This document shows, in pieces, positions 7,289 through 35,899 of a stretch of DNA of 38,284 nucleotides (the stretch's first letter is position 1; each line of letters begins with the position of its first letter). Source of the stretch: a virus; UHGV virus genome UHGV-0085204; one strand, 5' to 3'. The notes under the pieces are model-generated. The model worked only from the letters and a program-made list of their open reading frames with translations. It ran no database searches and was not told the DNA's origin. A program made the position numbers and the translations under genes.

Positions 7289-8095
7289 CTACTGTAACAT
7301 AGAGGCAGCATTCAGCATCTTTTCGTAATATGAACGCATGTCTTCTTTGCTATATGCGTTGATAAGATTATCAGCGTGTTTTTCCAGTAGATTTAGCTGC
7401 TGTTTTGCTGACTTTTCTTGTGCTGTCGTTTCAGCGGCAAAAATTACAAATGAATCAATATTTGAATTGTATAATTCGTAGGCTTTAGTAATTGTTAAAA
7501 CACTTATCGCAGCTTCACCCATTTGTTTTTTTATATTTTCAGAACGAAAATCTAATGTTTCTGTAAGATGGTATTTGCCATTTTTTAACAAAAAATCTGC
7601 AACTAACCCTTCTTCATTACTAATTGGATAATTAGCTACGATTTTATGTTGGGAAAGATCTTCAAAATACTTACTGAAAATTCCATGTTGTATAAAGGTG
7701 GATTTTAATTCAGAAAAAACCTTTTTTTTCAACTGCTTATGTGGTTGTTTTTGTGGGTTTACTAACCGATTCATTAGATCAGTAACTTTAGCTTCGTAAT
7801 CTTCGTTGGCTTGAAGAGTGAACATGCCAAATGACGATAACGATAATGCTCCCTTAAAAAGACAAGGAAGAAGTTCAGCATTGTTGATTTTTTGTGACAA
7901 ATCAAAAAGCGAGGTTGAAAGATCCTCTAAGTAATCTAAGGTAAGATCTTTGTCAATCGCTTTAAGTTTTGAAACTGAATTGAGCATACGTACGTCTATG
8001 TCAGAGTCATGGTAAACGATCAAACCAACGTTAATCGTTTCACCTTTCTCTAAGTTCGGTGTAACTCTGATTAAGCTGTATTTGAAAGTTTTCAA
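7289..8095 (-). CDS. DUF3037-like protein (assignment from memory); second gene of cargo operon; TTG start overlapping upstream stop
   Basis: 268 aa; N-terminal YSLIRVTPNLEKGETINVGLIV resembles the conserved DUF3037 N-terminus; GGAGA RBS 7 nt before the TTG; AT-rich by eye. Confidence 0.55.
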   Translation of the reverse strand: MKTFKYSLIRVTPNLEKGETINVGLIVYHDSDIDVRMLNSVSKLKAIDKDLTLDYLEDLSTSLFDLSQKINNAELLPCLFKGALSLSSFGMFTLQANEDYEAKVTDLMNRLVNPQKQPHKQLKKKVFSELKSTFIQHGIFSKYFEDLSQHKIVANYPISNEEGLVADFLLKNGKYHLTETLDFRSENIKKQMGEAAISVLTITKAYELYNSNIDSFVIFAAETTAQEKSAKQQLNLLEKHADNLINAYSKEDMRSYYEKMLNAASMLQ

Positions 8096-8940
8096 GATGT
8101 TATCTCCAGTCTTATGGCATTTAGCCTATCGATTCGCTCCTCGCTATCCCACCACTTCAAAAAATACTCCTTATGCATTGGTGGCATCCATGCTTCAGGC
8201 ATAGAGTTAAGTATATCAGATATAGTCTCAACTCCAATTTTTTCAATTTTGTCAAGGACAGATAATGCGCACTTTCTCAGATCATCAGTGTCGCCAATGA
8301 ATTGTTTAGCAATCGTCCAGTTTGTTGTTGTACTGGAGTCTGTTGGTAGTATATGAGGGGTATTTCGTGGCCAGCCTATAACAAAAGAGTTTAGACTAAA
8401 ATCGAATGTTTTAACTATAACATTGCCTCGGGTGTTTTCCATGTATAAGTAGTTGTTGAGGTGTCTGTCAATGTTATATACAAACTGATCAAATGCATAA
8501 ATTGCCCAGAGTTGCTTCTTTAAGGATTCAGAAGCATTTGAGAGCAAATTTATCCATTGAGGACTATTGAGACCAGATTTCCAGGCTGAAAACTCTATGC
8601 GAGAGCCAAAAACATACTCCCCATTAGCAATACACTTGAGAATTTTGCACACAGGTGTAGCGATGCCGCATTTTTCAGCTAAATTTGTGCAAAACCATTC
8701 CGCTGCCGGTACTTGAGTTGGGTTTTGTACAGGAAAAGGTGGGGTGGAACGCATGCTTTTAACTGCATATTCCATTTCATCAGTGGCAATAGCGAAACCA
8801 GAAAGGTGTGCAGTGCCTAAGCTTGAAGGTGTATATTCATGAAATTCTAATTCAAACAAACTTCCTTGCTCTGGTTTCACTTCATCAGTGTTTGGCTCTT
8901 GTTCTTTCGTCATCAACTTTTTTCCCCAAATCGAAGACAT
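8092..8940 (-). CDS. HipA-C-like / protein-kinase-like fold protein (short, lacks HipA N-terminal domains)
   Basis: 282 aa; catalytic-loop-like NIDRHLNNYLY (DxHxxN) followed about 20 residues later by TFDFS (DFG-like); AGAGG RBS; 46 bp downstream of repressor stop. Confidence 0.55.
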   Translation of the reverse strand: MSSIWGKKLMTKEQEPNTDEVKPEQGSLFELEFHEYTPSSLGTAHLSGFAIATDEMEYAVKSMRSTPPFPVQNPTQVPAAEWFCTNLAEKCGIATPVCKILKCIANGEYVFGSRIEFSAWKSGLNSPQWINLLSNASESLKKQLWAIYAFDQFVYNIDRHLNNYLYMENTRGNVIVKTFDFSLNSFVIGWPRNTPHILPTDSSTTTNWTIAKQFIGDTDDLRKCALSVLDKIEKIGVETISDILNSMPEAWMPPMHKEYFLKWWDSEERIDRLNAIRLEITS

Positions 8941-8986: not shown

Positions 8987-9679
8987 CTACCCATGCTTCC
9001 TATACGTCTGCGGCATGCTCCCAATAACCTTACCGAAGATGAACACCCGGTTCATCTCGTCTTTCTCGATCGGGTCCCACGGTGAGTAGCTCTTGTTATC
9101 AGAGATAACCAGCAGCTTATCCTTCATCATTTGCAGACGCTTTACATGGGCTGTGTCGTCGTACAGAAACGCATAGATACCATCACCGTCGAAAGATTTA
9201 ACCGTGATATCAACGAACAGCAGATCACCTGGTTCGATCGTTCCTGACATGCTGTCACCACGCACGTTAATGATGCGGATATTTTCCGCCTTCCTGCCAT
9301 CGAACATGTGACGAGCATCGTCAAACGAGTACTCAACCGAGCGTAGAACTTCTACAAACTCACGGTTGATTACACCCGGCCCGGCACTGACTTCTATATC
9401 AAGAACGTCAATTTTGAAGTATTTGGAATGGCTGACAGCAGGCTTCCCTGATTGTTGACCGTCATTTCTCATCGGGCCTATGCCTGATGAGAGCCATTCT
9501 GTTCGAACACCCAATGCATTAGCTATTTCAACAATTTTTGTTGAGCCGCGCGCGTTGCCGCTTGTCAGTCTCCAGATTGTGGGTTGAGCTACGCCAGACG
9601 CCTTTGCAAGAGCGCCTTGAGACATTCCAGATTGTTCCATCGCTAGGTTTAAGCGATCAGCAAGAGTTTCTTTTTTCAT
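8987..9679 (-). CDS. CI/LexA-like prophage repressor (N-terminal HTH, C-terminal S24 peptidase)
   Basis: 230 aa from ATG at 9679; HTH segment MSQGALAKASGVAQPTIWRL; S24 signature GDSMSGT and downstream lysine (VKRL); ORF-track start at 9715 is a TTG. Confidence 0.9.
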   Translation of the reverse strand: MKKETLADRLNLAMEQSGMSQGALAKASGVAQPTIWRLTSGNARGSTKIVEIANALGVRTEWLSSGIGPMRNDGQQSGKPAVSHSKYFKIDVLDIEVSAGPGVINREFVEVLRSVEYSFDDARHMFDGRKAENIRIINVRGDSMSGTIEPGDLLFVDITVKSFDGDGIYAFLYDDTAHVKRLQMMKDKLLVISDNKSYSPWDPIEKDEMNRVFIFGKVIGSMPQTYRKHG

Positions 9680-9715
9680 AAGTTTTAATTTATACGCTTG
9701 CGTATTGATGGTCAA

Positions 9716-11603: not shown

Positions 11604-12301
11604 AAAACATCGCCGCACAGATGGTTAACTTTGACCGTGAGCAGATGCGCCGGATCGCCAACAACATGCCGGAACAGTACGACGAAAAGCCGCAGGTACA
11701 GCAGGTAGCGCAGATCATCAACGGTGTGTTCAGCCAGTTACTGGCAACTTTCCCGGCGAGCCTGGCTAACCGTGACCAGAATGAACTGAACGAAATCCGC
11801 CGCCAGTGGGTTCTGGCTTTCCGGGAAAACGGGATCACCACAATGGAACAGGTTAACGCAGGAATGCGCGTAGCCCGTCGGCAGAATCGACCATTCCTGC
11901 CATCACCCGGGCAGTTTGTCGCCTGGTGCCGGGAAGAAGCATCCGTTAACGCCGGGCTGCCAAACGCCAGCGAGCTGGTTGATATGGTTTACGAGTATTG
12001 CCGGAAGCGTGGCCTTTATCCGGATGCAGAGTCTTATCCATGGAAATCAAACGCGCATTACTGGTTGGTTACCAACCTGTATCAGAACATGCGGGCCAAT
12101 GCGCTGACTGATGCGGAATTACGGCGCAAGGCTGCCGATGAACTGACTTGTATGACCGCGCGAATTAATCGTGGTGAGGCGATACCTGAACCAGTAAAAC
12201 AACTTCCTGTCATGGGCGGTAGACCACTTAACCGGGCTCAGGCTCTGGCGAAGATCGCAGAAATCAAAGCTAAGTTCGGACTGAAAGGAGCCAGTGTATG
12301 A
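11600..12301 (+). CDS. P: Replication protein P (DnaB loader)
   Basis: 233 aa, near-identical to my memory of lambda P (MKNIAAQMVNFDREQMRRIANNMPEQYDEKPQ...). Confidence 0.97.
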   Translation: MKNIAAQMVNFDREQMRRIANNMPEQYDEKPQVQQVAQIINGVFSQLLATFPASLANRDQNELNEIRRQWVLAFRENGITTMEQVNAGMRVARRQNRPFLPSPGQFVAWCREEASVNAGLPNASELVDMVYEYCRKRGLYPDAESYPWKSNAHYWLVTNLYQNMRANALTDAELRRKAADELTCMTARINRGEAIPEPVKQLPVMGGRPLNRAQALAKIAEIKAKFGLKGASV

Positions 12302-12591
12302 CAGGCAAAGAGGCAATTCTTCACTACCTGAAAACGCACCGGACTTTCTGCGCGCCGGATGTAGCTGCGGCAACAGGCGTGACTGTAACCAGCATCAATC
12401 AGGCAGCAGCCAAAATGGCACGGGCAGGAATCCTGGTCGTTGATCGCAAGGTCTGGCGAACGGTGTATTACCGGTTCGCTACCAGGGAGGAGCGGGAAGG
12501 AAAGGTGAGCACGAACCTGATTTTCAAGGAGTGTCGCCAGAGTGCCGTGATGAAACGGGTATTGATGTTTTGGGGGAGGGTAGGGGTATAA
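12298..12591 (+). CDS. ren: Ren exclusion protein
   Basis: 97 aa, matches lambda Ren (MTGKEAI.HYL.TH..FCAPDVAA.TG.TVTSINQAAAKMARAG). Confidence 0.9.
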   Translation: MTGKEAILHYLKTHRTFCAPDVAAATGVTVTSINQAAAKMARAGILVVDRKVWRTVYYRFATREEREGKVSTNLIFKECRQSAVMKRVLMFWGRVGV

Positions 12592-12879
12592 GCGAAACGT
12601 TATGAGTGTGTGGGTATTCGTGCCATTGCGATGTGGTAGAGAGTGCTGAGGGCGTCATGGTTGTGTTGCGAAAACTACGTTGCACTTGAGCAGGATCTTG
12701 CAGAATTTGAGCGCGAGTTCCGTGTTGCTGATGCGACTATACCCTCGATGTAGAGGAACTTAATTAGCTGATTGTAATTCAATATGCCTACTAAGACCGG
12801 TTGGGTATGAACTAGTAAAGGCTGCAAAATCCTATAGAGTGTTAACGCAACCAAAAACGTTAAGCACGGAGAAAAAAAT

Positions 12880-13632
12880 ATGGATCCTAAATTACTGTAT
12901 GCCACGTTTAAACGAAATGACGCACCAGCTTGGCGCTGCCCGAACTGTATGAATGAAACACTGGAGATTGTCGCTGATAGTTTTGTAGAAACTGATTCAA
13001 GCGCAACAACTCAGTTTAGAGATGAAGTATGGTTTGATGAGGAAATGTCGGGAGGAGTATTCAGTTGCGTGCTGCGCTGTACCCGCCAAGCCTGCCAGGA
13101 GAAGGTTGCTTTGTCTGGGCAGGTTGTTGCTGTAGAATGCTTCAATGACGAAATGACGGAGCGTTGGTATGTTTCTGGTTTCCGTCCTAAGTATTTCTAT
13201 CCACCACTTCCTCTATTCCTGTTTCCTGAAAAGTGCCCTGAAGATATAGCTGATCTCTTGGCGGAAGTATCAGCTCTGATCCCCTCGCACCCAGCTTCAG
13301 CGGTGAACACCATGAGAACCATACTGGAGATGATGCTTGATAGTCTTGATGTACCAAGAGAGAAAACAGTTAAAGGCAAGATAATACGTCTTTCTACGCA
13401 TGAAAGAATCACAAATTATTCAGATAAACTGGGACCAAATAAAGATGCATTCATGGCGTTAAAGTGGTTGGGGAATCACGGCAGTCATGGAGGGATTAAA
13501 GTCACAAGGTCCTCTATTAATGATGCCTGCATTCTCATTGGTCATTTGATTGACTTCTTATTCTTAGAAAGCCCGGATGTAACTATTCATATTGAACGGA
13601 TAAACAACGTGTATGCACCCAAAAAGGAGTAA
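12880..13632 (+). CDS. Zinc-ribbon plus DUF4145/HEPN-like domain protein (cargo)
   Basis: 250 aa; N-terminal CPNC...C..C; C-terminal KWLGNHGSHGG fits my memory of the DUF4145 R..GN...HG motif with K for R; AT-rich by eye. Confidence 0.5.
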   Translation: MDPKLLYATFKRNDAPAWRCPNCMNETLEIVADSFVETDSSATTQFRDEVWFDEEMSGGVFSCVLRCTRQACQEKVALSGQVVAVECFNDEMTERWYVSGFRPKYFYPPLPLFLFPEKCPEDIADLLAEVSALIPSHPASAVNTMRTILEMMLDSLDVPREKTVKGKIIRLSTHERITNYSDKLGPNKDAFMALKWLGNHGSHGGIKVTRSSINDACILIGHLIDFLFLESPDVTIHIERINNVYAPKKE

Positions 13633-13643
13633 AACGTAACGCC

Positions 13644-13892
13644 ATGTCGAAGCGGAATATTGCCGCTAAAACACAAGAAGAGCGCGAGAAGGTTAACGTT
13701 GACCTTGCTGTCTCCTGAGTTACCTACAAAGAGCACCTTAATATACCGGTTATTGCCGAAGCGGTGATGCGTGAGCAGCCTGAGCATTTGCGGGACTATT
13801 TTTTGGAGCGGCCACGACATTACCGCGAGCAGAGCATCGCGCTGCCCAAGGCATCCGCTCCTCGACATCTTAAGCAGGAAGGTGAAAAATGA
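13644..13892 (+). pseudogene. Small ORF interrupted by an in-frame TGA (13716-13718); downstream part ends in ATGA overlap with the next gene
   Basis: ATG 13644 ...AVS TGA VTYKEH...MREQPEHL...QEGEK stop at 13890-13892; same frame throughout. Confidence 0.3.
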
Positions 13893-14371
13893 TAAGTGCA
13901 GAAGGACTGCAGCGGTTACTTAATTTATCGGAGCCTCCATCTGATGAACTGATTGATGTTTATCTTCAATTCTGCATGATTTTTCCTAGGGTCGAGCAAA
14001 GTTTTTTTGGTGGCTTTGCTAAGGGGGAAGACAGTTTAAATTATGCGCGAACGTTACTTGACGCCGGGATAAAGGTGCCCAACGAACTTTTTCACGATTT
14101 TAAGCAGAGATACATTTTGAATGGGGATGCGCAGGAAAGACTTGACGCCCTCTGTGTCGGTCGAGAGAGAGATAGGCGGGGAATAGTTAATGGACTTCAA
14201 AATGACGCAGCAACAGATCTAAACACCATGTCTACAGTATTAAAGATAGTTATAAGGATAAGAAATAACCTTTTCCACGGAAATAAAGACGCTTATCTTT
14301 TTGTTGATTCTCAAGAGCAAGCGCAACTATTGAGGTGGTGCGTGAGATTTCTCCAAGGATTATTAAATTAA
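13889..14371 (+). CDS. HEPN-like hypothetical protein (cargo)
   Basis: 160 aa; RBS GGAAGGTG; C-terminal IRIRNNLFHGN contains an R-x4-H (HEPN-type) motif; AT-rich by eye. Confidence 0.45.
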   Translation: MISAEGLQRLLNLSEPPSDELIDVYLQFCMIFPRVEQSFFGGFAKGEDSLNYARTLLDAGIKVPNELFHDFKQRYILNGDAQERLDALCVGRERDRRGIVNGLQNDAATDLNTMSTVLKIVIRIRNNLFHGNKDAYLFVDSQEQAQLLRWCVRFLQGLLN

Positions 14372-14560
14372 TCTACCTTTGATTTTCCATAATCAACCAG
14401 CAATAATAATGTCACCGGAGCCTGAACAACATCGGTGACTTCTGCGCTAAACGGGGACGTTTATGCGCACATACAATCCAAACTCTCTTCTCCCTTCACA
14501 GATGCAGAGATGCACCTGCGATTTTTTGCATCCAGCGTTTGACCTCTGCGGAGGTGAAGC

Positions 14561-15016
14561 GTGAACCTCCCACAAGACGGCATCAAATTGCATCGTGGTA
14601 ACTTCACCGCTATCGGCCAGCAGATCCAGCCTTATCTGGAGGAAGGCAAATGCTTTCGCATGGTGCTTAAACCGTGGCGTGAGAAACGCAGTCTTTCCCA
14701 GAATGCACTCAGCCACATGTGGTACAGCGAAATCAGTGAATACCTCATCAGCAGGGGTAAAACGTTCGCCACTCCAGCTTGGGTAAAAGATGCTCTCAAA
14801 CACACATATCTCGGTTATGAAACCAAAGACCTGGTTGATGTCGTAACCGGTGAGATCACCACTATCCAGTCGTTACGCCATACCTCCGATCTTGATACCG
14901 GAGAGATGTATATCTTCCTGTGTAAGGTTGAAGCCTGGGCGGTGAATATTGGCTGCCACCTGACTATTCCGCAGAGCTGCGAGTTCCAGCTGCTCCGCGA
15001 CAAGCAGGAGGCGTAA
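14561..15016 (+). CDS. NinB-family protein (DLP12 YbcN-like)
   Basis: 151 aa; GTG start with GGAGG RBS; [16 protein letters not shown] motif; position at start of nin region. Confidence 0.7.
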
Positions 15017-16582: not shown

Positions 16583-17107
16583 TTATTGTTTAACCCATAA
16601 TAATTCATTGACATTGAATCCCAACTTTTGAGCGGTTCGCACATAGTCTGCTTTTACTTTATCTGGAATAGTTGGGGTCCTTGCCAGAATCCATAGGTAT
16701 TCTCTGTTCGGACCACTGACAAGAGCATACTTATACTCATCATCCAGTTTGATTACATTATAGCCACCATAGAAGGGGCCAAAAAACGAAACCTTCAACG
16801 CTGCAGTTTTAGTATCTCCAGTAAAGTATGCTTTACCTTCGCTCTCGCTCCATTTATTTTTCGTTGGATCGTATCCACGGTTAAGTACACGAATCCCTCC
16901 GTCGTTCCGTTTTCCATAAGTAGCGCTGACCTGTTCCAGACCACGTTCGAACCGGTTCTCGAGGCGAGCTATTTCATACCATTTTCCGAGGTAGCGGTTG
17001 GCGTCAAAATTTGTAATCGGCTGCACACCTTTAGGTGGTGTCGGGGCCTTACATGCTATAAGAGTGAAAGAGAGTGCAATGCCAGTCAACACAGGCCATA
17101 ACTTCAT
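16583..17107 (-). CDS. Outer-membrane lipocalin lipoprotein, Blc-like (moron)
   Basis: 174 aa; lipobox LIAC after signal peptide; GKWYEIAR and FFGPFYGGYNVI motifs shared with E. coli Blc. Confidence 0.9.
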   Translation of the reverse strand: MKLWPVLTGIALSFTLIACKAPTPPKGVQPITNFDANRYLGKWYEIARLENRFERGLEQVSATYGKRNDGGIRVLNRGYDPTKNKWSESEGKAYFTGDTKTAALKVSFFGPFYGGYNVIKLDDEYKYALVSGPNREYLWILARTPTIPDKVKADYVRTAQKLGFNVNELLWVKQ

Positions 17108-17299
17108 AATAAATCCTGTACTTTTGATAGTTGAGAGTAAGTATGAAAGATAGATGATTACGACCGATCACTTAAAGAACTTTCATACTATATTAGGAAT
17201 AGTCCATAACAGAAAAATTGTCAGTGATGACGCCAGAAAGGCAATTTATTCCGTGCATTACACAGTTTATGTGTTAATGAATTAGTCAAGGGGGAGAAT

Positions 17300-18259
17300 A
17301 TGATAAAAAAACCTGTGATTGGAATCAGCGGTTGTTTGACCGGTTCTGCTGTTCGTTTTGATGGTGGTCACAAAAGAGCTGACTTTTTAATGGACAAATT
17401 AGTGGAATGGGTAACATTCAGACCAGTATGTCCAGAAATGGCTATAGGGCTGCCAGTTCCGCGTCCTGCTCTACGTCTTGTGCGCTCGACGCAAGGAAAT
17501 ATACGGATGTGTTTTAGCCACGACCAGAATGAGGATGTGACAGAGAGAATGACAGAGTTTAGTCGTTCTTATATGAACAAATTAAAGGATGTATCGGGGT
17601 TTGTGGTTTGTGCTAAATCTCCCAGCTGTGGCATGGAGCGCGTGCGTGTCTATGATGAAAATGGTAATCGAGGTCGTAAAGATGGAGTGGGACTATTTAC
17701 GAGCACTTTGATGGAAAAGTTTTCCTGGCTACCGGTTGAAGAGGATGGGCGATTACATGATCCAGTGCTTCGTGAGAATTTTGTTGAAAGAGTTTTTGCT
17801 TTGCATGAGCTCAATCATCTTTACAAGGAGAAATTATCAAGAAGAGAGTTATTAGCTTTTCATAGTCGTTATAAGCTTCAGTTATTGGCGCATAGTCAGG
17901 CAGGCTATAAAGATATGGGACCATTTGTGGCTGCAATACACGAGTGGGCGGACCTTGAATCATACTTTGAGGTGTATCGTGATAAGCTGATGGCGATTCT
18001 CAGAAAACCTGCATCACGTAAAAATCACACGAATGTGCTGATGCATATACAGGGGTATTTTAGTAACTACTTAAGTACACGCCAGCGTAAAGAGTTGAGC
18101 GAGGTTATACTTAACTATCGTTCTGGCACATTACCTCTTCTTGCGCCGTTGACTCTGCTGAAGCATTATCTGGGTGAGTATCCTAATGATTACTTGCTTA
18201 CACAGAATTACTTCGATCCCTATCCGGACGAACTGGCTCTAAGACTGATGGTAAATTAA
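17300..18259 (+). CDS. YbgA-like protein (DUF523 + DUF1722, from memory) (moron)
   Basis: 319 aa; GGGGGAG RBS; N-terminal GISGCLTG cysteine-containing region. Confidence 0.65.
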   Translation: MIKKPVIGISGCLTGSAVRFDGGHKRADFLMDKLVEWVTFRPVCPEMAIGLPVPRPALRLVRSTQGNIRMCFSHDQNEDVTERMTEFSRSYMNKLKDVSGFVVCAKSPSCGMERVRVYDENGNRGRKDGVGLFTSTLMEKFSWLPVEEDGRLHDPVLRENFVERVFALHELNHLYKEKLSRRELLAFHSRYKLQLLAHSQAGYKDMGPFVAAIHEWADLESYFEVYRDKLMAILRKPASRKNHTNVLMHIQGYFSNYLSTRQRKELSEVILNYRSGTLPLLAPLTLLKHYLGEYPNDYLLTQNYFDPYPDELALRLMVN

Positions 18260-18608
18260 TTGTATGCGATATCATCCAAAAGGATGAGTTCCTGCATGCA
18301 GGATATTTACAATCGTAAAAACTACACTATGATACCCAGAGTGTCAGTTTGTATAAAAACTCTGTTTACGCTGAAGAAACCATTGAGATGCAACTTAAAG
18401 TTGGTAAACATGCCAGTCAAAATATAATATTATGATTCCACGCAGCTATATATAATATAACAGATTGGTTTAATAATTTGTCTTTGTGAGTTAAATACAT
18501 AATTTTATACTTGTGATGCAATGAGATTTTCCTTATTGTTGAACTGGCGAATATTGATTTTCCACCTATACTTACCTGGTGTAACCTCAATGATATCAGG
18601 TGGATAAT

Positions 18609-19355
18609 ATGCCATACATATGTTCTATCATTTTGGTGTTGAACTCGTTTGATGCCCGAATTGGTAAAGAAGATATTTTGTTTAAAAAAGGAAGTGCTGT
18701 TCTCATTGATTACAATTTAAAAGATTTTTTTTCATCAAATATAGATCATGTAATGATCGTAGATGTTGAAGAGAAAACAGTTAATGATTTCTTTAAAAGC
18801 AACACACTCTCACCTTTTTCTGTAAGAAGGTTTTATCCGGCATACTTGATGGTGGAATGTGAAGATTTTTCATTGTTAAAGAACTTGATTGCATGCTTGA
18901 ATTGTGATGGCAGAACTGTGGATTTTGTTAGAAATCAAATATCACTTGCATGTCTTGCTATCTTATCTTCAGAGAAAATAGTGCAAAGTTTTTTATTTGG
19001 ATGTCTTAATAGTTTAGGAAGTAAAGTTAAGGCTATTATTCACACGGATATATCTGCAGCATGGAGACTTTGTGATATATCTTCAAGACTGTATCTGAGT
19101 GAAAGTCTGTTAAAAAGAAAATTAAAGCACGAAGGCTTATCATTTAGTAAGTTAATTCTTGAAGAGCGAATGGTGATGGCGGAAAGGTTATTAAGCTACA
19201 ATTTATATTCTGTTGGAAAAGTTGCTGAGATATGCGGTTATGAAAATACGTCATATTTTGTAAGTGTTTTCAGAAGATATTTTGGTGTTCCTCCCCATCA
19301 ATATTCATCAAGATTTTTTTTAGAAAAAGACATGATGTCACGTGATACGTTTTAA
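18609..19355 (+). CDS. AraC/XylS-family transcriptional regulator, AT-rich (moron)
   Basis: 248 aa from ATG 18609 (AGGTGG RBS); C-terminal HTH TSYFVSVFRRYFGVPPHQY typical of AraC family; long AT-rich leader. Confidence 0.85.
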   Translation: MPYICSIILVLNSFDARIGKEDILFKKGSAVLIDYNLKDFFSSNIDHVMIVDVEEKTVNDFFKSNTLSPFSVRRFYPAYLMVECEDFSLLKNLIACLNCDGRTVDFVRNQISLACLAILSSEKIVQSFLFGCLNSLGSKVKAIIHTDISAAWRLCDISSRLYLSESLLKRKLKHEGLSFSKLILEERMVMAERLLSYNLYSVGKVAEICGYENTSYFVSVFRRYFGVPPHQYSSRFFLEKDMMSRDTF

Positions 19356-20787: not shown

Positions 20788-20900
20788 ACCGAACCTGCCC
20801 CTTTGGAATGGGCCTTTGAGGATACCAGTTAGTGCTGGCGAGCCTCGGTGGGCTGGTTTCCTGTGCGGCAAAGGTTCATTTCAAATGGTAGGTAAACGTT

Positions 20901-21422
20901 ATGAATATCGTGCCACTTAATTACAAAGGTGAAATTGTCAGTTTCAACACTGATGGTTGGATCAACGTCACAGGTGTTGCTGAGAGATTTGGGAAACGCA
21001 TTGATAACTGGATGCGTTTGGCAGAAACGCTTGAATACGTTCGTGCTTTAGACGAAGCGTTGACCGGGAAAGAATCTCAAATTTTACATCCCTCACAATC
21101 GAGGTATGTAAAAACCAGCAAGGCACGAAAGGACAGGGGTGGTGGTACGTGGCTACATCCAAAACTTTCAGTTGCATTTGCCCGTTGGTGTGATGCTCGT
21201 TTTGCTGTGTGGTGCGACCTGCACATTGATAGTCTGCTTCGCGGTGAACTGACTGAGCAGCAGAAATATGAGCAAGCATGTCGCATTCGCGATGACCGGA
21301 AATCAAAAGCCAGCAATGGGGCAAGAGAGATGGCTCGCTGGCGATGGGATAAGCCGGTTATTGAAGCAAATGTTGAGTACTGGCGCGAGCAACTGCAGTT
21401 GACTCTCGATATCGCGTGCTGA
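20901..21422 (+). CDS. KilA-N domain protein
   Basis: 173 aa; GWINVTGVAERFGKR...WLHPKLSVAFARWCDARF typical of KilA-N/APSES-like domain. Confidence 0.6.
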   Translation: MNIVPLNYKGEIVSFNTDGWINVTGVAERFGKRIDNWMRLAETLEYVRALDEALTGKESQILHPSQSRYVKTSKARKDRGGGTWLHPKLSVAFARWCDARFAVWCDLHIDSLLRGELTEQQKYEQACRIRDDRKSKASNGAREMARWRWDKPVIEANVEYWREQLQLTLDIAC

Positions 21423-21584
21423 TGGCAAACGCAAAACTGCGTTATCGAAAAAATCAAAGCATTACTAGAACTGAGCAACGGCTATCCATTACAAAGCCCA
21501 TCTACGGGTGGGCTTGATAATGGCTTATACCCTGCACGGGATAACTTAACTGATATCCCTTTTAACGGATAAACGGAGCCAACA

Positions 21585-21827
21585 ATGGCAGAGATTATTC
21601 CCATGACTGAAGAACAGAAATTCCAGTTAGAGATTTACAAACTGGTCATGAACCAGAACGCAGCTGCAGAGGAAGCATTTCAGTTCATTGGCACTGACGA
21701 ACTGAAGCTTGAGCTATTCAAAATTCACTTCCAGTCAGGCGGCGCTAATTCAGATATCACGACCCGCACTATCGAAGCGGTGCGTAAATCGAAGGAAGCG
21801 TTAGACCTGTTCACTACCGGAGCGTAA
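21585..21827 (+). CDS. Hypothetical small protein upstream of terminase
   Basis: 80 aa ORF with ATG start. Confidence 0.4.
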   Translation: MAEIIPMTEEQKFQLEIYKLVMNQNAAAEEAFQFIGTDELKLELFKIHFQSGGANSDITTRTIEAVRKSKEALDLFTTGA

Positions 21828-21906
21828 ACATGGCAACTCAAGGTTTCGACAACCCATCCAAATTCCGCGATGAATGGGATAAGCAAGCAGAAGGGAAATA
21901 ATCAAT

Positions 21907-22332
21907 ATGGCGACTGAGAAAAAGAAAGGTGGTCGCCCCTCTGATTATATGCCGGAGGTGGCTAATGACATTTGCGCATTGCTTTCCTCCGGTGAGAGTC
22001 TGCGCAAAGTTTGCGAACGCCCAGGAATGCCGAGCAAAACATCAGTTTTTCGCTGGCTGGCTGAACATCAGGAGTTTCGTGACCAGTACGCGAAGGCAAC
22101 AGAGACTCGGGCCGACTCTATTTTCGAAGAGATATTCGAAATTGCTGACGACGTAATCCCTGATGCCGCCGAGGTGGCAAAGGCAAGACTTCGCGTTGAT
22201 ACCCGCAAATGGGCGCTGGCCAGAATGAATCCCCGTAAGTATGGCGACAAGGTAACTAATGAGCTTGTCGGCAAAGACGGAGGCGCAATCCAGATTGAAA
22301 CATCACCGATGAGCACTCTGTTCGGAAAATGA
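21907..22332 (+). CDS. Terminase small subunit (Sf6 gp1-like)
   Basis: 141 aa; GGRPSDYMPEVA..SGESL.KVC.RPGMP...VFRWLA matches my memory of Sf6 TerS. Confidence 0.85.
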   Translation: MATEKKKGGRPSDYMPEVANDICALLSSGESLRKVCERPGMPSKTSVFRWLAEHQEFRDQYAKATETRADSIFEEIFEIADDVIPDAAEVAKARLRVDTRKWALARMNPRKYGDKVTNELVGKDGGAIQIETSPMSTLFGK

Positions 22333-23744
22333 CCTCGATTAATCCTATCTTTGAACCGTTCATTGAGGCGCATCGCTACAAAGTCGCCAAAGGCGGTCGA
22401 GGTAGCGGCAAATCATGGGCAATTGCGAGGCTGCTTGTTGAAGCGGCGCGTCGGCAGCCAGTGCGTATTCTCTGCGCTCGCGAACTGCAAAACAGTATCA
22501 GCGATTCGGTAATCCGGCTGCTTGAAGACACCATAGAGCGTGAAGGGTATACGGCTGAGTTTGAAATTCAGCGTTCCATGATTCGTCATCTCGGAACGAA
22601 TGCTGAGTTCATGTTCTACGGCATCAAAAACAACCCGACGAAGATTAAATCGCTCGAAGGCATTGATATCTGCTGGGTGGAAGAAGCGGAAGCGGTAACA
22701 AAGGAATCGTGGGATATCCTGATGCCAACCATCCGCAAGCCGTTTTCCGAAATATGGGTGAGCTTTAACCCGAAGAACATACTCGACGATACCTATCAGC
22801 GATTCGTTGTAAATCCTCCCGATGATATTTGCCTGCTGACGGTGAACTACACCGACAACCCGCACTTTCCTGAAGTTCTCCGTCTGGAGATGGAAGAGTG
22901 CAAACGCAGAAACCCGACACTGTATCGTCACATCTGGCTTGGTGAGCCAGTAAGCGCAAGTGATATGGCAATCATCAAACGTGAATGGCTTGAAGCCGCA
23001 ACCGATGCGCACAAGAAACTCGGATGGAAAGCGAAAGGCGCTGTTGTCTCTGCGCATGACCCATCAGACACAGGGCCAGATGCTAAAGGTTACGCATCGC
23101 GTCACGGTTCGGTAGTTAAGCGCATTGCCGAAGGCCTGCTGATGGACATCAACGAGGGCGCTGACTGGGCTACTTCTCTGGCGATTGAAGACGGCGCTGA
23201 CCACTACTTGTGGGATGGTGATGGTGTTGGTGCAGGTCTACGCAGACAGACAACGGAAGCGTTCTCCGGTAAGAAAATCACCGCCACGATGTTCAAGGGC
23301 AGCGAATCGCCATTCGATGAGGATGCGCCTTATCAGGCCGGAGCATGGGCTGATGAAGTCGTGCAGGGCGACAACGTTCGCACTATTGGCGATGTATTCC
23401 GCAATAAGCGAGCGCAATTCTATTACGCGCTGGCTGACAGGCTGTATCTGACATATCGGGCGGTTGTTCACGGTGAGTATGCAGACCCCGACGACATGCT
23501 GAGTTTCGACAAAGAAGCAATAGGCGAGAAGATGCTGGAGAAGCTGTTTGCAGAACTTACGCAGATTCAGCGCAAATTCAATAACAACGGGAAGCTGGAG
23601 CTTATGACTAAGGTAGAAATGAAGCAAAAGCTCGGGATCCCATCTCCTAACCTGGCTGATGCGTTGATGATGTGTATGCATTGCCCGGAGTCGGCTGCGC
23701 AACCCGACTATTCCAGTTACTCAATTCCTTGTGGTGTAGGTTGA
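22329..23744 (+). CDS. Terminase large subunit
   Basis: 471 aa; Walker A KGGRGSGKSW; ATGA overlap with TerS. Confidence 0.95.
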   Translation: MTSINPIFEPFIEAHRYKVAKGGRGSGKSWAIARLLVEAARRQPVRILCARELQNSISDSVIRLLEDTIEREGYTAEFEIQRSMIRHLGTNAEFMFYGIKNNPTKIKSLEGIDICWVEEAEAVTKESWDILMPTIRKPFSEIWVSFNPKNILDDTYQRFVVNPPDDICLLTVNYTDNPHFPEVLRLEMEECKRRNPTLYRHIWLGEPVSASDMAIIKREWLEAATDAHKKLGWKAKGAVVSAHDPSDTGPDAKGYASRHGSVVKRIAEGLLMDINEGADWATSLAIEDGADHYLWDGDGVGAGLRRQTTEAFSGKKITATMFKGSESPFDEDAPYQAGAWADEVVQGDNVRTIGDVFRNKRAQFYYALADRLYLTYRAVVHGEYADPDDMLSFDKEAIGEKMLEKLFAELTQIQRKFNNNGKLELMTKVEMKQKLGIPSPNLADALMMCMHCPESAAQPDYSSYSIPCGVG

Positions 23745-23745
23745 T

Positions 23746-25944
23746 ATGGCAGAAAAAAAGATGACTGACTGGCATCGCAAGGTGCTGTGCAACTTTGATA
23801 ATGCCTGGTCAGCAACGCAGGATATGCGTGAGCAGATTATTGAGGCTCAACGTTTCGTCAGGGTGTCCGGCGCACAGTGGGAAGGCAGCACAAACGCTGG
23901 TTACTCATTTGATGAAGGCAGGTTTGAGCATTATCCGCGTTTTGAACTGAATAAGATTGCCCGTGAATGTGATCGCATCATTGGCGAGTATCGACAGAAT
24001 CGCATCAGCGTTAAATTCAGACCGAAGGACGATAAGGCATCGGAAGCGTTAGCCGAAAAGATGAACGGAAAATTCCGCGCTGACTATCAGGAAACATCCG
24101 GTGGCGAAGCGTGTGATAACGCATTTGATGATGCCGTAACGGGTGGATTTGGTTGTTTCCGCATGTGTGCCGATTACGAAGATGAAATGGATCCTAGTAA
24201 TGAGCAGAGGCGCATCAGCCTTCTTCCTGTTTACGACCCGGCGACATGCGTCTTCTTCGATCAGGACAGCAAGCAATATGACCGCTCTGATGCTATGTGG
24301 GCTATGGAAATGTTCTCCATGACGCCTAAAGCGTTCGAGGCTGAATACCCTGATTCCATTGCGGCAAGCCTTTCTCGGGATGACACTGGTACTCAGTATG
24401 ACTGGTCAACGCCCGATGCCATCTATGTTGGACGCTACTACGAAGTTCGCATAGAGAAGGTGAAGCTCACGGCGTGGCGCAACCCTGTTAGCGGAGAAAC
24501 GGCAATCTATGATGAAGAGCAAATCAAAGATATTGTCGACGAGCTGACCGATGGTGCATTCGAACTGATTGGCGAGCGAACGGTGAAGAAGCGCCGCGTT
24601 TATTGCGGTCTTCTGTCTGGCGCTGAATGGCTGGAAGAACCGAAGCGTATTCCGGGCGAACATATTCCTCTCATCCCGGTATATGGGCGTCGCTCATTTG
24701 TTGATAATCAGGAGCGAATAGAAGGCCACGCAGCAAAAGCGATGGATGCACAGCGTCTTGAGAACCTGATGGTTTCTATGATTGCAGATAACGCTACTCA
24801 GGCTGGCGGTGATGGCATTCCTATCGTGGATGTTGATTTCATTCCCGGCCCATTAATGAATCACTGGGCAGAGAGGAATAAGAAAAGACCTGCAGTTCTT
24901 CCCATGACCAGCAAGAAGGACAAAAACGGAACGGTCATTTCAGAGGCTCAGGTTGCTGGCTGGACACCTCCGACACAAATGCCTCCTGCTCTTGCCGGGC
25001 TATTGCAGTACACCGGAACGGCTATTCAGCAAATTACAGGTGCGTCGCAGCTTGAGAACATGCCGAGCAACGTCGCTACCGATACCGTTGATAGCATCTT
25101 TAACCGGATGGACACGCAGTCCTATATCTACATGGACAACATGGCTAAATCCATGCGTCGCGCTGGCGTTGTGTGGCTTTCTATGGCGCGTGAGGTCTAT
25201 GGCAGTGATACGCCGATGCGTATCGTTAATGAGGACGGCAGCGATGACGTGGCGCTGATGACTGGTGAAGTGGTTGACCGTCAGACAGGGCAGGTTATCG
25301 CGCTTAATGACCTTTCGCAGGGTAACTATGAAGTGACTGTCGATGTTGGCCAGTCGTTCGCTACTCGCCGTGATGCAACGGTTAAGTCGTTACTTTCCAT
25401 GCTGGCACTTATCCCACCAGGAACTCCGAAGCACGACCTTGTATCGTCGATGATTCTCGACAATATGGACGGCGAAGGGATGGACGACCTGAAAGAATAC
25501 AACCGCAATCAGTTGCTTCTGTCTGGCGTTATCAAGCCGAGAACGCCTGAAGAGCAGCAGATGGTTGAACAGGCGAAACAACAACAGGCCAGTCAGCCAG
25601 ATCCGGCTATGGTTGCAGCGCAAGGTCAGCTTCTTGCTGGTCAGGCTGAATTGCAGAAAGCGCAGAACGAACAGGCAGCCATTCAGGTTAAAGCATTCCA
25701 GGCACAAACTGATGCTCAGGTTGCAGCGGCAAATGTTGTGAAAATACTCGCATCTGCCGATAGCCAGCAGAAATCTGATATCCGCGAGGCTCTGAAACTG
25801 CTCGGACAGTTCCAGCAACAGCAAGGAGACAATGCCCGTGCTGATGCAGAGCTTGTCCTGAAAAGTCAGGCACAGGGCCATGCGCAGCGCATGGACATCA
25901 GCAGCATCCTGCAAAAATCAACCCGGCAACAACCACAGCAGTAA
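23746..25944 (+). CDS. Portal protein (P22 gp1 family)
   Basis: 732 aa; GEHIPLIPVYG and C-terminal QQDPAMVAAQGQLLAGQAELQKAQN...RMDISSILQ resemble P22 portal. Confidence 0.95.
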   Translation: MAEKKMTDWHRKVLCNFDNAWSATQDMREQIIEAQRFVRVSGAQWEGSTNAGYSFDEGRFEHYPRFELNKIARECDRIIGEYRQNRISVKFRPKDDKASEALAEKMNGKFRADYQETSGGEACDNAFDDAVTGGFGCFRMCADYEDEMDPSNEQRRISLLPVYDPATCVFFDQDSKQYDRSDAMWAMEMFSMTPKAFEAEYPDSIAASLSRDDTGTQYDWSTPDAIYVGRYYEVRIEKVKLTAWRNPVSGETAIYDEEQIKDIVDELTDGAFELIGERTVKKRRVYCGLLSGAEWLEEPKRIPGEHIPLIPVYGRRSFVDNQERIEGHAAKAMDAQRLENLMVSMIADNATQAGGDGIPIVDVDFIPGPLMNHWAERNKKRPAVLPMTSKKDKNGTVISEAQVAGWTPPTQMPPALAGLLQYTGTAIQQITGASQLENMPSNVATDTVDSIFNRMDTQSYIYMDNMAKSMRRAGVVWLSMAREVYGSDTPMRIVNEDGSDDVALMTGEVVDRQTGQVIALNDLSQGNYEVTVDVGQSFATRRDATVKSLLSMLALIPPGTPKHDLVSSMILDNMDGEGMDDLKEYNRNQLLLSGVIKPRTPEEQQMVEQAKQQQASQPDPAMVAAQGQLLAGQAELQKAQNEQAAIQVKAFQAQTDAQVAAANVVKILASADSQQKSDIREALKLLGQFQQQQGDNARADAELVLKSQAQGHAQRMDISSILQKSTRQQPQQ

Positions 25945-26034
25945 TTAACCCATAACGTGCAATGGCTGTCTTTATGAGGCCTGGCACCCTATTGCCTTCC
26001 GATGGGCTGAACATCGAGTAAACAGGGGTAACAA

Positions 26035-26928
26035 ATGGACCAGATGGCAGAAAACACACCAGAAGTTGAAATCGAAACCGACGCGTCAGAGCAGATTCCT
26101 GATGATGTCGAACTGGCTGAAGAAGTCGAAACAGAAGATGGCAGTGAGTCCTCTGGCAATGATGCAGAGGAAGCTACTGAAACTGATGACGACGAATCAG
26201 AACAGGAATTCTACTTTGGTGACGAAAAGCTGGATTCGCCAACCAGCGAAGATAGCGCAGAGCATGGACTGGTAAAACACCTGCGCAAGACGATTAAAGA
26301 GAAAGATCGCGAGCTGAAAGAGCTGATGCGTCAGTCTCAGAAACCCGTCGAGCAGCAGCCGGTAATCACTCAACCACCGCGAATGCCAAAACTGGATGAT
26401 GAGGACATCGGTTTCGATGAAGAAATCTATCAGCAACGCATGGCTAAGTGGGCAGAGGATAACGGAAAGTACCAGCAACAGGAGATGGCTCGCAAGCAGA
26501 AGGAGCAGGAGCTTCAGGCTGCTTATCAAGAGCGATTATCCAAATATCAGCAACGTGTTAAGGCTCTCAAGGTTCCTGGCTATCAGGAAGCAGAACAGGC
26601 CGTACTCGAGGAAATCCCCATCGAGACACAAAACGCGATCCTGTTTGAGTCAGAGAAGCCGGAAATCGTTGTTCTGGCGCTTGGTCGCAACGCTGAACTG
26701 CGCAAGCAACTGGCAGAAGCTACCAACCCCGTAGCAATTGGTCGTCTGCTGGAACGTATCGAATCGAAGGCCAGAATCATGCCAAAAGCAAAAACCACGG
26801 CAGCCACAACCCCGACAGTTAAGGGGAGCAACGGCGCAGTAATCAATAACCTCGACAAACTGAAAGCCAAGGCGCTGGAAACTGGTGACTGGACGCCGTA
26901 TTTCGCCGCTAAAAAGGCAAAAAAATAA
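26035..26928 (+). CDS. Scaffolding protein
   Basis: 297 aa; acidic N-terminus, charged helical middle, basic C-terminal tail; between portal and coat. Confidence 0.8.
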   Translation: MDQMAENTPEVEIETDASEQIPDDVELAEEVETEDGSESSGNDAEEATETDDDESEQEFYFGDEKLDSPTSEDSAEHGLVKHLRKTIKEKDRELKELMRQSQKPVEQQPVITQPPRMPKLDDEDIGFDEEIYQQRMAKWAEDNGKYQQQEMARKQKEQELQAAYQERLSKYQQRVKALKVPGYQEAEQAVLEEIPIETQNAILFESEKPEIVVLALGRNAELRKQLAEATNPVAIGRLLERIESKARIMPKAKTTAATTPTVKGSNGAVINNLDKLKAKALETGDWTPYFAAKKAKK

Positions 26929-26946
26929 CCTATCGGAGCATTAAGC

Positions 26947-28200
26947 ATGGCTAACCAATTAGCAAAAGACCTTGAAATCATGTTCGAAAACTACGTTGAA
27001 GGCTTTGAGGCCGCCTGCGTAGTTTCCCGTAACGCTAAAAAATTCCGTCCCGGTGATACAGCAATGCAGCGAGCAGGTGATGTTCTGTATCGTCCGCAGC
27101 ATTACCACATGAATATTGAGGAAGGCCTCGACCTCAGCAGCAAAACGCCAACAGCACTGGTTCAGCGCCTTGTTCCTTCTGTGTTCAAGGAGCCGAAAAA
27201 CATTCTGTACACTCTGGATGCGCGTGAAATGCGTGACCCGGAACATAAAACTGAAGCTGGTCGCGCCGCAGGTATGCGCCTTGCTGCACAGATTGACTCT
27301 GACCTAATTTCCATGGTTACGCAGCGTGCTACTAACGTGATCACAATGTCTGACTCAACCACTGGTTCACAGGGCCGTGATTTGTGGAACTGTGCGGCAG
27401 GTATTGATGCCACTATGACGGCGATTGGTGTACCGCAGGGTATCAACCGCCGCTCTTTCTGGAACCCCTTCAACTACAAAGACCTTGCTGGCGAGCTTGG
27501 TCACCGTGCCTATGCTCAGGGCGCAACCTTGACAGCATACGAAAAAGCGCAGATCCCTCCGGTTGCGTCCTTCGATAGCTACAAGACCGATATTTCTGGT
27601 CGTGTTCCGAAGGGTACAGCAACTTCCCTGACGCTGGCGGCTGAACCTGCGCACAAGGTTGAAGCGAAAGATGCCAACGATATGCCAGTGGATAACCGAC
27701 AGGGGACCATTACGGTATCTGCATCTGGTTTGCAGGTTGGCGATGCGTTTACCATTGCAGGGGTGAATTCCGTACACCAGATCACCAAAGATACCACCGG
27801 GCAGCTGCAGGTATTCCGCGTTCTGGCAGTAAGCGGAACGACAGTAACTATCTCCCCGAAAATTCTGCCGCCTGACAACGCGGATGTCGCCAGCCGACCA
27901 TATGCAAACGTTGATGCTAACGCGGCAAATGGTGCAGCAATTACCATTCTCAACAAAAATGCCGCACCGGCTAACCTGTTCTGGGCTGATGGTTCTGTTG
28001 AGCTGATGTACGGCAAACTGGCGTTCCCTACTGGTCAGGGGCCACAGGTAATGACAGCAACCACCGAGCAGGGCGCTACGCTGATCATGTCTTACGCCTT
28101 CGACCACATCAAAGGTGTAACCACTGCGCGTTTCACCACCCTGTACGGTTGCTCTGTACTTGTTCCTGAATATACGGGCATCGTTATTGCCGGGCAGTAA
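26947..28200 (+). CDS. Major coat protein (P22 gp5 family)
   Basis: 417 aa; position after scaffold; followed by strong terminator. Confidence 0.9.
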   Translation: MANQLAKDLEIMFENYVEGFEAACVVSRNAKKFRPGDTAMQRAGDVLYRPQHYHMNIEEGLDLSSKTPTALVQRLVPSVFKEPKNILYTLDAREMRDPEHKTEAGRAAGMRLAAQIDSDLISMVTQRATNVITMSDSTTGSQGRDLWNCAAGIDATMTAIGVPQGINRRSFWNPFNYKDLAGELGHRAYAQGATLTAYEKAQIPPVASFDSYKTDISGRVPKGTATSLTLAAEPAHKVEAKDANDMPVDNRQGTITVSASGLQVGDAFTIAGVNSVHQITKDTTGQLQVFRVLAVSGTTVTISPKILPPDNADVASRPYANVDANAANGAAITILNKNAAPANLFWADGSVELMYGKLAFPTGQGPQVMTATTEQGATLIMSYAFDHIKGVTTARFTTLYGCSVLVPEYTGIVIAGQ

Positions 28201-28207
28201 TTTTGGT

Positions 28208-28230
28208 GGGGCTTCGGCCCCATTTTTATT
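28208..28230 (+). terminator. Rho-independent terminator after coat gene
   Basis: GGGGCTTCGGCCCC hairpin followed by ATTTTTATTT. Confidence 0.7.
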
Positions 28231-28241
28231 TGGAGAAGACA

Positions 28242-28430
28242 ATGGCACGAACAATGCTCTATAAGCCTGGCAACATGATCACCTGTGGTCAGTTTGCTGT
28301 CGATTACATCATTGTTGATGACGAAGAAGTTAAATCTCACCTGAAAAAAGGCTGGGTAAAAACTCCTGAAGAAACCGCAACGAAGCATAAAGTGGCTAAG
28401 GCGGAAGAAGATGGCGAAAACGAAGGGTGA
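28242..28430 (+). CDS. Hypothetical small protein between coat and gp4
   Basis: 62 aa from ATG 28242 with GGAGAAGACA RBS. Confidence 0.4.
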   Translation: MARTMLYKPGNMITCGQFAVDYIIVDDEEVKSHLKKGWVKTPEETATKHKVAKAEEDGENEG

Positions 28431-28872
28431 TCTCGTTCTTAAGGCTTTACGAAAAGCCGGGCTGTATTCCAATGCCACGTTGACAGATGCCGACCCTCAG
28501 GCAATAGAAGATGCCATTAATGACCTCGAAGACATGATGGCAGCATGGCAGGCGAAAGGTATCGAGCTTGGATATCAGTTTGCTGATACAGAAAACGGCA
28601 TCATGCCGTTACCTGACGATGATTCAGGTATCCCTGCATGGGCAAATGATGGCGTCGCTTTGAAACTCGCTGTGCAAGTGTGCATGGATAACGTCATTCA
28701 GCCGTCAGATGCTCTCCTTACCGCTGCTGACAGCGCATATCAGACAATCTGCATCGCTTTAACCAAAATACCACCACTTGAGCGGCGAAATGACATGCCT
28801 CGCGGTAGTGGTAACAAAAGCGCGTTTACGTGGAATCGGTTTTACATCGAGAAAGATGATCCGAGTACGTGA
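28411..28872 (+). CDS. Head-tail adaptor / DNA stabilization protein (P22 gp4-like)
   Basis: 153 aa; gene order coat-gp4-gp10-gp26. Confidence 0.8.
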   Translation: MAKTKGDLVLKALRKAGLYSNATLTDADPQAIEDAINDLEDMMAAWQAKGIELGYQFADTENGIMPLPDDDSGIPAWANDGVALKLAVQVCMDNVIQPSDALLTAADSAYQTICIALTKIPPLERRNDMPRGSGNKSAFTWNRFYIEKDDPST

Positions 28873-28881
28873 GGTGAATAA

Positions 28882-31456: not shown

Positions 31457-31458
31457 CC

Positions 31459-32151: not shown

Positions 32152-32160
32152 GGGGTAATC

Positions 32161-35453: not shown

Positions 35454-35542
35454 CTTCGCAAACACCAGGAACGTGCAAAAACCAAATATGTAGAACGCAA
35501 TATTCAGCATATCTCTTTGCATAAATCCTCCGTAACTGATGG

Positions 35543-35803: not shown

Positions 35804-35876
35804 CCTTGATGCCTCACCAGTTGGGTGGAATGGCATCGTAACCTACTGGATAAATACTCAATAGTACCATTTCGGT

Positions 35877-35899
35877 ATGCAATCACATCATGGTTGCAT
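35877..35899. promoter_or_regulatory. Palindromic element ATGCAA-N11-TTGCAT between mnt and tailspike; candidate operator
   Basis: ATGCAATCACATCATGGTTGCAT just upstream of the tailspike RBS. Confidence 0.35.

Follow-up and report, generated by a model that had tools for sequence, protein, structure and literature searches.

Do two neighboring low-GC genes at the junction between the replication and nin genes of a prophage work together as one system, or did each of them arrive there on its own? We addressed this question for UHGV virus genome UHGV-0085204, a prophage that combines a lambda-type early region with P22-type late genes; "the window" below means this whole stretch of 38,284 nucleotides. 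Between a ren-like gene and a NinB/YbcN-like gene, the window carries gene A (250 amino acids, aa) and gene B (160 aa). A sequence-only reading had taken them for a tandem pair of DUF4145-type genes that encode a heteromeric HEPN RNase, that is, one two-subunit defence or exclusion module. Both open reading frames (ORFs) exist exactly as that reading described them, motifs included, and so do the low GC content of the interval (0.39–0.50 from A to B, versus 0.52–0.58 in the O/P/ren genes at its left) and its placement between the ren-like and NinB-like genes. The two genes are indeed neighbors on the same strand, but they are not directly in tandem, as the 256-bp gap between them is filled by a theta pseudogene. 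Our results suggest that the ren-ninB junction probably holds three separately acquired items, stacked as independent cargo genes, and not one system. The features of these three items, by position in the window, are:

12880..13632, plus strand: gene A, an ORF of 250 aa (WP_000371307.1)
~12880-13179, plus strand: Cys-rich N-terminal region of gene A (C20, C23, C63, C67, C72)
13273-13527, plus strand: DUF4145 match of gene A (Pfam PF13643), aa 132-216
13462-13488, plus strand: motif K195-x2-G-N-x2-S-H203 of gene A (KWLGNHGSHGG), read from the sequence
13644..13892, plus strand: theta (HolE / P1 HOT-like) pseudogene, with an in-frame TGA at 13716-13718 (codon 25)
13889..14371, plus strand: gene B, an ORF of 160 aa, predicted to be all-helical (WP_000622057.1)
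14255-14287, plus strand: motif R123-I-R125-N-N127-L-F-H130-G-N-K133 of gene B (IRIRNNLFHGN), read from the sequence

Genes A and B are constrained genes and not chance ORFs, with homologues found at E-values of 1e-50 to 1e-167 and dN/dS ratios of 0.10–0.16 across genera. Their distributions are nevertheless separate. A and B co-occur in one E. coli cassette alone, which is present in 48 of 5426 genomes (the 48 being complete E. coli genomes). Neither gene B nor theta was found near relatives of gene A (0 of 11 loci, representing the four relatives P0011, P0012, P0015, and P0018). Conversely, gene A was nearby in only one of 27 gene B lineages, dereplicated at 80% identity, and that one is the E. 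coli cassette. Even at 97–98% identity, gene B occurs without gene A (loci L032-L034 and L161), and the similarity of these B-only E. coli loci to the window starts inside the 3' end of theta. When we compared the window with the cassette of E. coli NC101, gene A differed at 0 of 753 nt but theta plus B at 16 of 732 nt (Poisson P ~7e-8), and we therefore place a recombination boundary between A and theta. The 288-bp spacer upstream of gene A, with 2 differences in 288 nt from the NC101 cassette, behaves like gene A itself.

The fates of the two genes differ as well. Gene B has been knocked out independently while gene A is intact in NC101 (E93*) and in E. coli A11 and loci L030 and L031 (K45*), and for locus L034 a T-run frameshift in gene B was recorded with gene A intact. 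Most of the 48 complete genomes with the cassette nevertheless have an intact gene B, as do the two that were checked of the 18 genomes with a cassette type of 98.6–98.7% identity. The A-theta-B cassette recurs at 99.9% identity in E. coli TUM11353 (L159), within a prophage that has a different late region. The absence of B from the A loci and the single shared lineage largely refute the proposed heteromeric module, and the mosaic boundary and the pseudogene between the genes also speak against it.

The ORF at 13644-13892 translates as MSKRNIAAKTQEEREKVNVDLAVS*VTYKEHLNIPVIAEAV... and aligns over its full length with PF06440-annotated prophage theta genes in loci L003 and L006. Its closest known counterparts are DNA polymerase III subunit theta (HolE) and HOT of phage P1; the copy in the window, unlike them, is interrupted. 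The in-frame TGA is common to all E. coli cassette copies examined, and the 98.6–98.7% cassette type has an additional frameshift; hence, theta is a pseudogene. PGAP likewise treats it as a pseudogene, under the label "DNA polymerase III subunit theta, internal stop", in the E. coli genomes TUM11353 and A11. What is left is the remnant of a replication accessory gene, and it forms the left border of a cargo slot with variable content. We also noted that theta copies beside B-family genes are often broken independently (L040, L070, L076, L009, L032, L036, L066, L073, and L075), and that four unrelated theta copies have stops within the same six-codon ASGVAY segment (codons ~23-28). Intact theta copies are under strong purifying selection (omega 0.08).

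As judged from its sequence, gene A is a true DUF4145/HEPN-clan protein with a Cys-rich, zinc-ribbon-like N-terminus. Pfam PF13643 (DUF4145) matched it with 45.5 bits against a gathering cutoff of 23.1 (E = 7.9e-12), over profile positions 5-83 of 88, as the sequence-only reading had anticipated. Among the 17 homologues found, 16 carry a precomputed PF13643 annotation, and gene A also matches PHROG 1305 (E = 8.7e-45). DUF4145 belongs to the HEPN clan, and its fusion to zinc ribbons is frequent (PMC3710099). The N-terminal Cys4 zinc ribbon that had been proposed for gene A held in part: the CPNC sequence and the Cys-rich region are there, but a comparison with fourteen homologues down to 32% identity and with gp49 of Salmonella phage SEN8 revealed five invariant Cys residues (C20-x2-C23 and C63-x3-C67-x4-C72), and no zinc-ribbon profile match to gene A was found. 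N143, R146, E150, K195, G198, N199, S202, and H203 are also invariant in the family, so that the residues of the C-terminal motif are conserved in homologues; the DUF4145 pattern that had been proposed for the motifs of both genes holds for gene A alone. The dN/dS ratio of gene A is 0.12–0.16 across genera.

Gene A had no match in PADLOC (none at E ≤ 1) or in NCBIfam, and neither a profile of its family nor its HEPN domain retrieved any PDB chain sequence at E ≤ 10, RAZR included. A tblastn search of 50,697 phage records returned Salmonella phage SEN8 as the sole match. The SEN8 protein, gp49 (L170:272-1012), is 33% identical to gene A, retains the invariant Cys residues and the K..GN..SH motif, and is annotated as "DNA binding protein"; its gene adjoins dinI and the gpA replication gene of this P2-like phage. 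In NZ_CP104526.1, NZ_CM176495.1, NZ_CM149569.1, and NZ_CM185171.1, gene A is named "DUF8608 domain-containing protein", which implies a family model newer than those in the Pfam and NCBIfam copies searched. Relatives of gene A at 47–72% identity are lone genes in cargo sites (11 loci for the four relatives): one sits among the tail genes of a P2-like prophage, adjoining an AAA_21 and HNH pair, and others lie next to integrase/DinI, beside umuDC, or, with ParA and integrase genes as neighbors, on a contig of 117 kb.

This architecture recalls that of RAZR/PD-T7-4, a ring-activated zinc-finger RNase (Zhang et al., Nature 2026; PMC13017515). It is a single protein that works alone as an RNase in abortive infection, is activated when it assembles around ring-shaped phage proteins, and cleaves ssRNA nonspecifically; the rings are bound by its zinc-finger domain (65 residues, followed by a 14-residue linker), and its DUF4145 domain requires R146 and H154 in an R-x7-H arrangement (PMC13017515). 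Gene A, like RAZR, encodes a single protein with an N-terminal Cys-rich domain of zinc-ribbon type, a linker, and a C-terminal DUF4145/HEPN domain, in which a basic residue and a His lie eight positions apart (K195/H203 versus R146/H154), and both are lone genes on mobile elements. Gene A differs from RAZR in being longer, with ~130 residues ahead of the DUF4145 match, in the arrangement of its five invariant Cys residues, and in having a Lys in place of the catalytic Arg. Beyond the shared Pfam domain, we found no sequence match between gene A and RAZR, either among PADLOC models (the presence of PD-T7-4 in the release being unconfirmed) or among PDB chains. Since no PDB chain matched even though RAZR entries are cited as deposited (9Y9C/9Y6U), gene A is best described, at the level of sequence, as an architectural relative of RAZR and not as a demonstrated member.

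A second comparison is offered by DS-38, which a preprint from the same laboratory as RAZR (bioRxiv 10.1101/2025.01.08.631726) describes as a validated single E. coli defence protein with HEPN and zinc-finger domains; its zinc finger shows no alignment with the one in PD-T7-4. DS-38 thus stands to PD-T7-4 as gene A stands to RAZR: the architecture is the same and the zinc finger is unlike. In looking for evidence that gene A is DS-38 itself, we found no paper that mentions WP_000371307.

Gene B belongs to a large unannotated family. It falls in PHROG 27260 ("unknown function", E = 1.8e-93) and matched nothing in Pfam, NCBIfam, or PADLOC. A word-indexed search gave eight close relatives, an exhaustive profile search gave 174 representatives, and a profile search of a large collection gave 966 clusters of ~165 aa, all "hypothetical" and none with a Pfam domain; a locus search with 16 sequences yielded just 2 loci in species-representative genomes, and a tblastn search of the 50,697 phage records returned no match. 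Among 82 sequences of 27% mean identity, E36, R74, R123, R125, N127, H130, and K133 are invariant, the consensus motif being RLRNNLFHGxK, and dN/dS is 0.10–0.16 across genera. The R-x4-H motif pointed out in gene B by the sequence-only reading is therefore conserved in its homologues. An AlphaFold2 model built on the alignment of the 82 diverse sequences is all-helical (pLDDT 94, pTM 0.90), with a helix at 110-130 that is closed by the motif at H130 and followed by a loop, a short turn, and a last helix at 141-159.

In the published description of HEPN domains, helix 3 ends with an Rx4-6H motif, the Arg is followed by a polar residue, and an acidic residue is conserved farther upstream (PMC3710099). 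R125-N-N-L-F-H130 of gene B agrees with this description, polar residue included; in the model it sits at the HEPN place, at the end of core helix 3 and before helix 4, and E36 is an invariant upstream acidic residue, though not in an Ex3[KR] context. Small HEPN families such as RiboL-PSP-HEPN (PF18735) and DUF3644/EC042_2821 likewise have an R-[N]-x3-H motif that ends the penultimate core helix and an upstream Glu, and share with gene B an all-helical fold, an insert between helix pairs, and conflict-system contexts (PMC3710099). By contrast, no B-family member scores as high as a gathering threshold, the B family stands outside Pfam, NCBIfam, and PADLOC, and nothing has been described that corresponds to the invariant R74, R123, and K133 or to the eight-helix layout. 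Gene B is thus likely to be HEPN-like. The contexts of its relatives vary: in Ensifer, gene B is part of an AAA_21/SMC_N-TauD-T5orf172-B operon; in Loktanella, it ends an ORC/Cdc6-like operon; in Cupriavidus, it lies in an island beside E1/E2/JAB and ImmA-XRE genes; and the enteric branch occurs in prophages and viral contigs, where it is part of the early operon and has replication genes and methylases as neighbors.

By analogy with RAZR and DS-38, gene A would be a self-contained, single-protein defence candidate: its zinc domain may sense a protein of an infecting phage, upon which its C-terminal HEPN domains, paired in a dimer or a larger oligomer, would cut RNA and abort the infection. 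Gene B is predicted, from its invariant R-x4-H, the Asn after the Arg, and the upstream Glu, to be a small HEPN-like, metal-independent RNase that acts as a homodimer, either by itself or, in other genomes, as the last effector of a larger operon; members of its family are in fact located at the 3' ends of defence-island-type operons. The sequences themselves show the domain and motif assignments, the conservation of the motifs, the independence of A and B, the decay of theta, and the variability of the slot, and from there we infer RNase activity, a defence role, and a sensing mechanism.

A number of caveats apply to the defence-type, RNA-cutting role that both genes look like they have, a role predicted from sequence. 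Because the cassette has no evident promoter and is located within the early lytic operon, the genes may instead have a lytic-cycle or counter-defence role, especially gene B. The HEPN assignment of gene B, which the sequence-only reading had made, holds for the motif and its position, and profiles and structures lend it weak support. Members of the family gave sub-threshold profile matches only (RiboL-PSP twice, with a best E-value of 1e-4, DUF3644 twice, and DUF4209 once). A Foldseek search of the model against PDB and BFVD found nothing significant, the best matches being generic helical proteins. Searching PDB sequences with the gene B profile gave no meaningful match, and a local hidden Markov model and phmmer comparison of gene B with one RiboL-PSP-annotated protein was uninformative. 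Gene B is not a DUF4145 protein, contrary to what had been proposed, as DUF4145 was detected neither in gene B nor in any of the 82 family members and hhalign gave the B and A families a probability of only 0.2%. Gene A, for its part, has the invariant H203 of the dyad but an invariant Lys (K195) at the basic position, where RAZR has an Arg, and this Lys in place of a catalytic Arg is a caveat on the RNase reading.

Gene B might, on these grounds, not be a nuclease but a helical phage early protein (such as a regulator, an inhibitor directed at a host or defence factor, or a nucleotide-binding adaptor) whose motif binds a ligand. The want of any HEPN family at threshold, the generic character of the best structural matches, the position of the enteric branch in the early operon, with replication genes and methylases at its side, and the lack of a promoter of its own would all fit such a protein. 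We nonetheless consider it unlikely, since HEPN domains are recognized by just this combination, R-N-x3-H at the canonical position and an invariant Glu upstream of it, since the sub-threshold matches are mostly to HEPN families and stop at the motif, and since the non-enteric members end defence-like operons. A HEPN-like gene B remains the reading we prefer.

Gene A could similarly be catalytically dead, with Lys for Arg, and act as a nucleic-acid-binding or regulatory protein. K195 is invariant exactly where RAZR has its essential R146, the motif is incomplete in approximately 20% of DUF4145 members (PMC3710099 Table 1), and PHROG 1305 and the SEN8 annotation read "DNA binding protein". This label is, however, an unverified annotation. 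Moreover, the invariance of H203, N199, and N143/R146/E150 is what one would expect if an active site were under selection, a Lys still provides the positive charge, alternative basic residues are known from other HEPN families (PMC3710099), and the distribution of gene A over cargo sites fits a defence gene. We therefore regard a dead gene A as quite improbable and favor an active zinc-finger/HEPN protein.

Theta and gene B raise the question of a unit of another kind. In prophages of Klebsiella, Salmonella, and Enterobacter, gene B comes directly after theta and the two overlap by 4 nt (ATGA), just as the theta stop overlaps the gene B ATG in the window (ATGA at 13889-13892); theta is full-length (77–84 aa) in Klebsiella and Salmonella, and the Enterobacter copy (L009) has a stop near its C-terminus. 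The adjacency recurs in gene B relatives of 24–41% identity, sometimes with theta downstream, and theta neighbors gene B in 12 of the 27 lineages. Together with a layout of a small upstream and a larger downstream gene, as in type II toxin-antitoxin pairs, this could mean that theta, or the HolE of the host, is an antitoxin-like regulator of B, or that B acts on the Pol III epsilon-theta core or monitors it. Such a unit is very improbable. B-family ORFs were present in none of 80 theta loci (the best 80 of at least 516 viral-contig matches; positive controls worked), and in these same loci more than 25 unrelated gene families directly follow theta. Fifteen of the 27 lineages lack theta, as do the three non-enteric chromosomal members in Ensifer, Loktanella, and Cupriavidus. 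Not one of the E. coli cassette copies examined has an intact theta, although B is intact in most, a recombination junction lies inside theta, and ATGA overlaps are the norm for adjacent nin-region genes. Obligate reciprocal linkage with both genes intact, which defines type II toxin-antitoxin pairs, is not what theta and B display.

A functional link of any kind between theta and B is thus highly improbable, and it is hardly credible that the enterobacterial-phage branch of B is tied to theta or the epsilon-theta core, for instance as a HEPN-like effector that is checked by theta or monitors it. If it were, the repeated decay of theta beside B would reflect selection and not neglect, and a replisome accessory subunit would be linked to an RNase-type conflict system. 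Because B is often beside theta and yet 0 of the 80 theta loci carry B, theta is better seen as flanking a variable slot; the simplest reading is that theta at the left and ninB at the right border a recombinationally exchanged slot that is often held by B-family genes.

As to the heteromeric A and B enzyme, 48 complete E. coli genomes have the two genes on one strand at a distance of 256 bp, each gene has a basic-residue...His motif, and HEPN domains act as dimers (PMC13017515), but such an enzyme can be dismissed as barely conceivable given that the genes do not co-occur outside one near-identical cassette, that a pseudogene and a mosaic boundary separate them, that B occurs without A at 97–98% identity and is inactivated beside an intact A in NC101, A11, L030, and L031, that their families share no profile similarity, and that RAZR-type proteins work alone.

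A two-subunit HEPN RNase would have been new; as it is unsupported, what remains is more modest. New are a large HEPN-like family that has no name yet and a Lys-bearing zinc-finger/HEPN branch whose zinc-finger region is distinct; otherwise the locus is made of known kinds. Gene A would add a distinct branch, with a larger zinc-finger region and a Lys in the dyad, to the zinc-finger/HEPN defence proteins, for which a mode of action by assembly on phage ring proteins was demonstrated recently, and offers a natural test of sensor-domain diversification and of whether the Arg is dispensable. Gene B flags a family of ~1000 clusters that is unnamed in databases and is a candidate new HEPN family worth curating: it combines a textbook HEPN-type motif, a confidently predicted fold without a close solved relative, and defence-island contexts.

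The replication-nin junction had been called a recurrent cargo site, and a comparison of the same junction in related prophages bears this out: different, unrelated genes fill a fixed position. In E. coli OkiPb01694 (L161:647-2280), a PRTase-like and NADAR pair takes the place of gene A, upstream of a theta remnant and an intact B; PRTase plus NADAR is also the gene composition of DS-32, according to the preprint (bioRxiv 10.1101/2025.01.08.631726). In relatives the slot is occupied by methylases, by a NACHT protein, and by a wide variety of unrelated small genes. More than 25 families follow theta, and a Pfam scan of ten genes after theta matched DUF1367 alone.

Prophages keep moron and defence genes in cargo hotspots, for example lambda rexAB and the hotspots of P2. 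The slot described here resembles them in having a fixed place between core genes (P/ren/theta at the left, ninB at the right) with varied occupants, and differs from them in lying inside the early lytic operon. This theta-flanked slot of lambdoid phages could be mined for more defence or counter-defence genes. An Enterobacter mori prophage (L009:5875-7776) has a 633-aa NACHT-domain protein directly downstream of the B homologue and before the nin genes. In another locus (L082), a 211-aa Pfam-less protein that starts 9 bp after theta has the motif IRNKYAH (R-N-x3-H), which suggests that HEPN-type genes recur in the slot after theta.

The flanks of the interval are as follows:

12298-12591: ren-like gene, left flank of the interval
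12592..12879, unstranded: spacer of 288 bp from the ren-like gene to gene A, which travels with A
14372..14560, unstranded: right junction, a conserved segment upstream of ninB from ~14374
14463-14564: 33-aa ORF upstream of ninB, inside the right junction and annotated in locus L001
14561-15016: NinB/YbcN-like gene, right flank of the interval

The 288-bp spacer contains no ORF with homologues, and its matches to sigma-70 and terminator consensus sequences are not beyond chance; over the cassette, too, promoter or terminator signals were not above shuffled expectation. An Rfam scan that included the spacer matched no family, and a search for flanking repeats pointing to an insertion mechanism found none. 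A megablast search of phage records with the cassette matched only the conserved downstream 180 bp. Matches to lambdoid phages, including the orf33 region of phage 82, and to 2760 E. coli records start at window position ~14374-14378.

Other parts of the window also carry cargo. On the minus strand, a DUF3037 protein (7289-8095) and a HipA-like kinase (8092-8940), together spanning 7289-8940, lie directly downstream of an S24/HTH repressor (8987-9715, minus strand), in the position of lambda rexAB. PADLOC gave weak matches for these two genes (PDC-M03A and PDC-M66B). A HipA-like kinase with DUF3037 is, in the preprint (bioRxiv 10.1101/2025.01.08.631726), the domain composition of the validated two-gene system DS-6. 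The P22-type genes lie within positions 20900-38284 and include a 732-aa portal-sized ORF and a tailspike in which a P22 head-binding domain is combined with an S74 chaperone; in the prophage of E. coli TUM11353 (L159), which is integrated next to ybhC, the head and tail genes are of lambda type. Lastly, a low-GC (0.29–0.44) cargo block at 16583-19355, between a Q-like antiterminator and the lysis genes, encodes a lipocalin (minus strand), a 2-thiouracil desulfurase/DUF1722 protein, and an AraC-family regulator.

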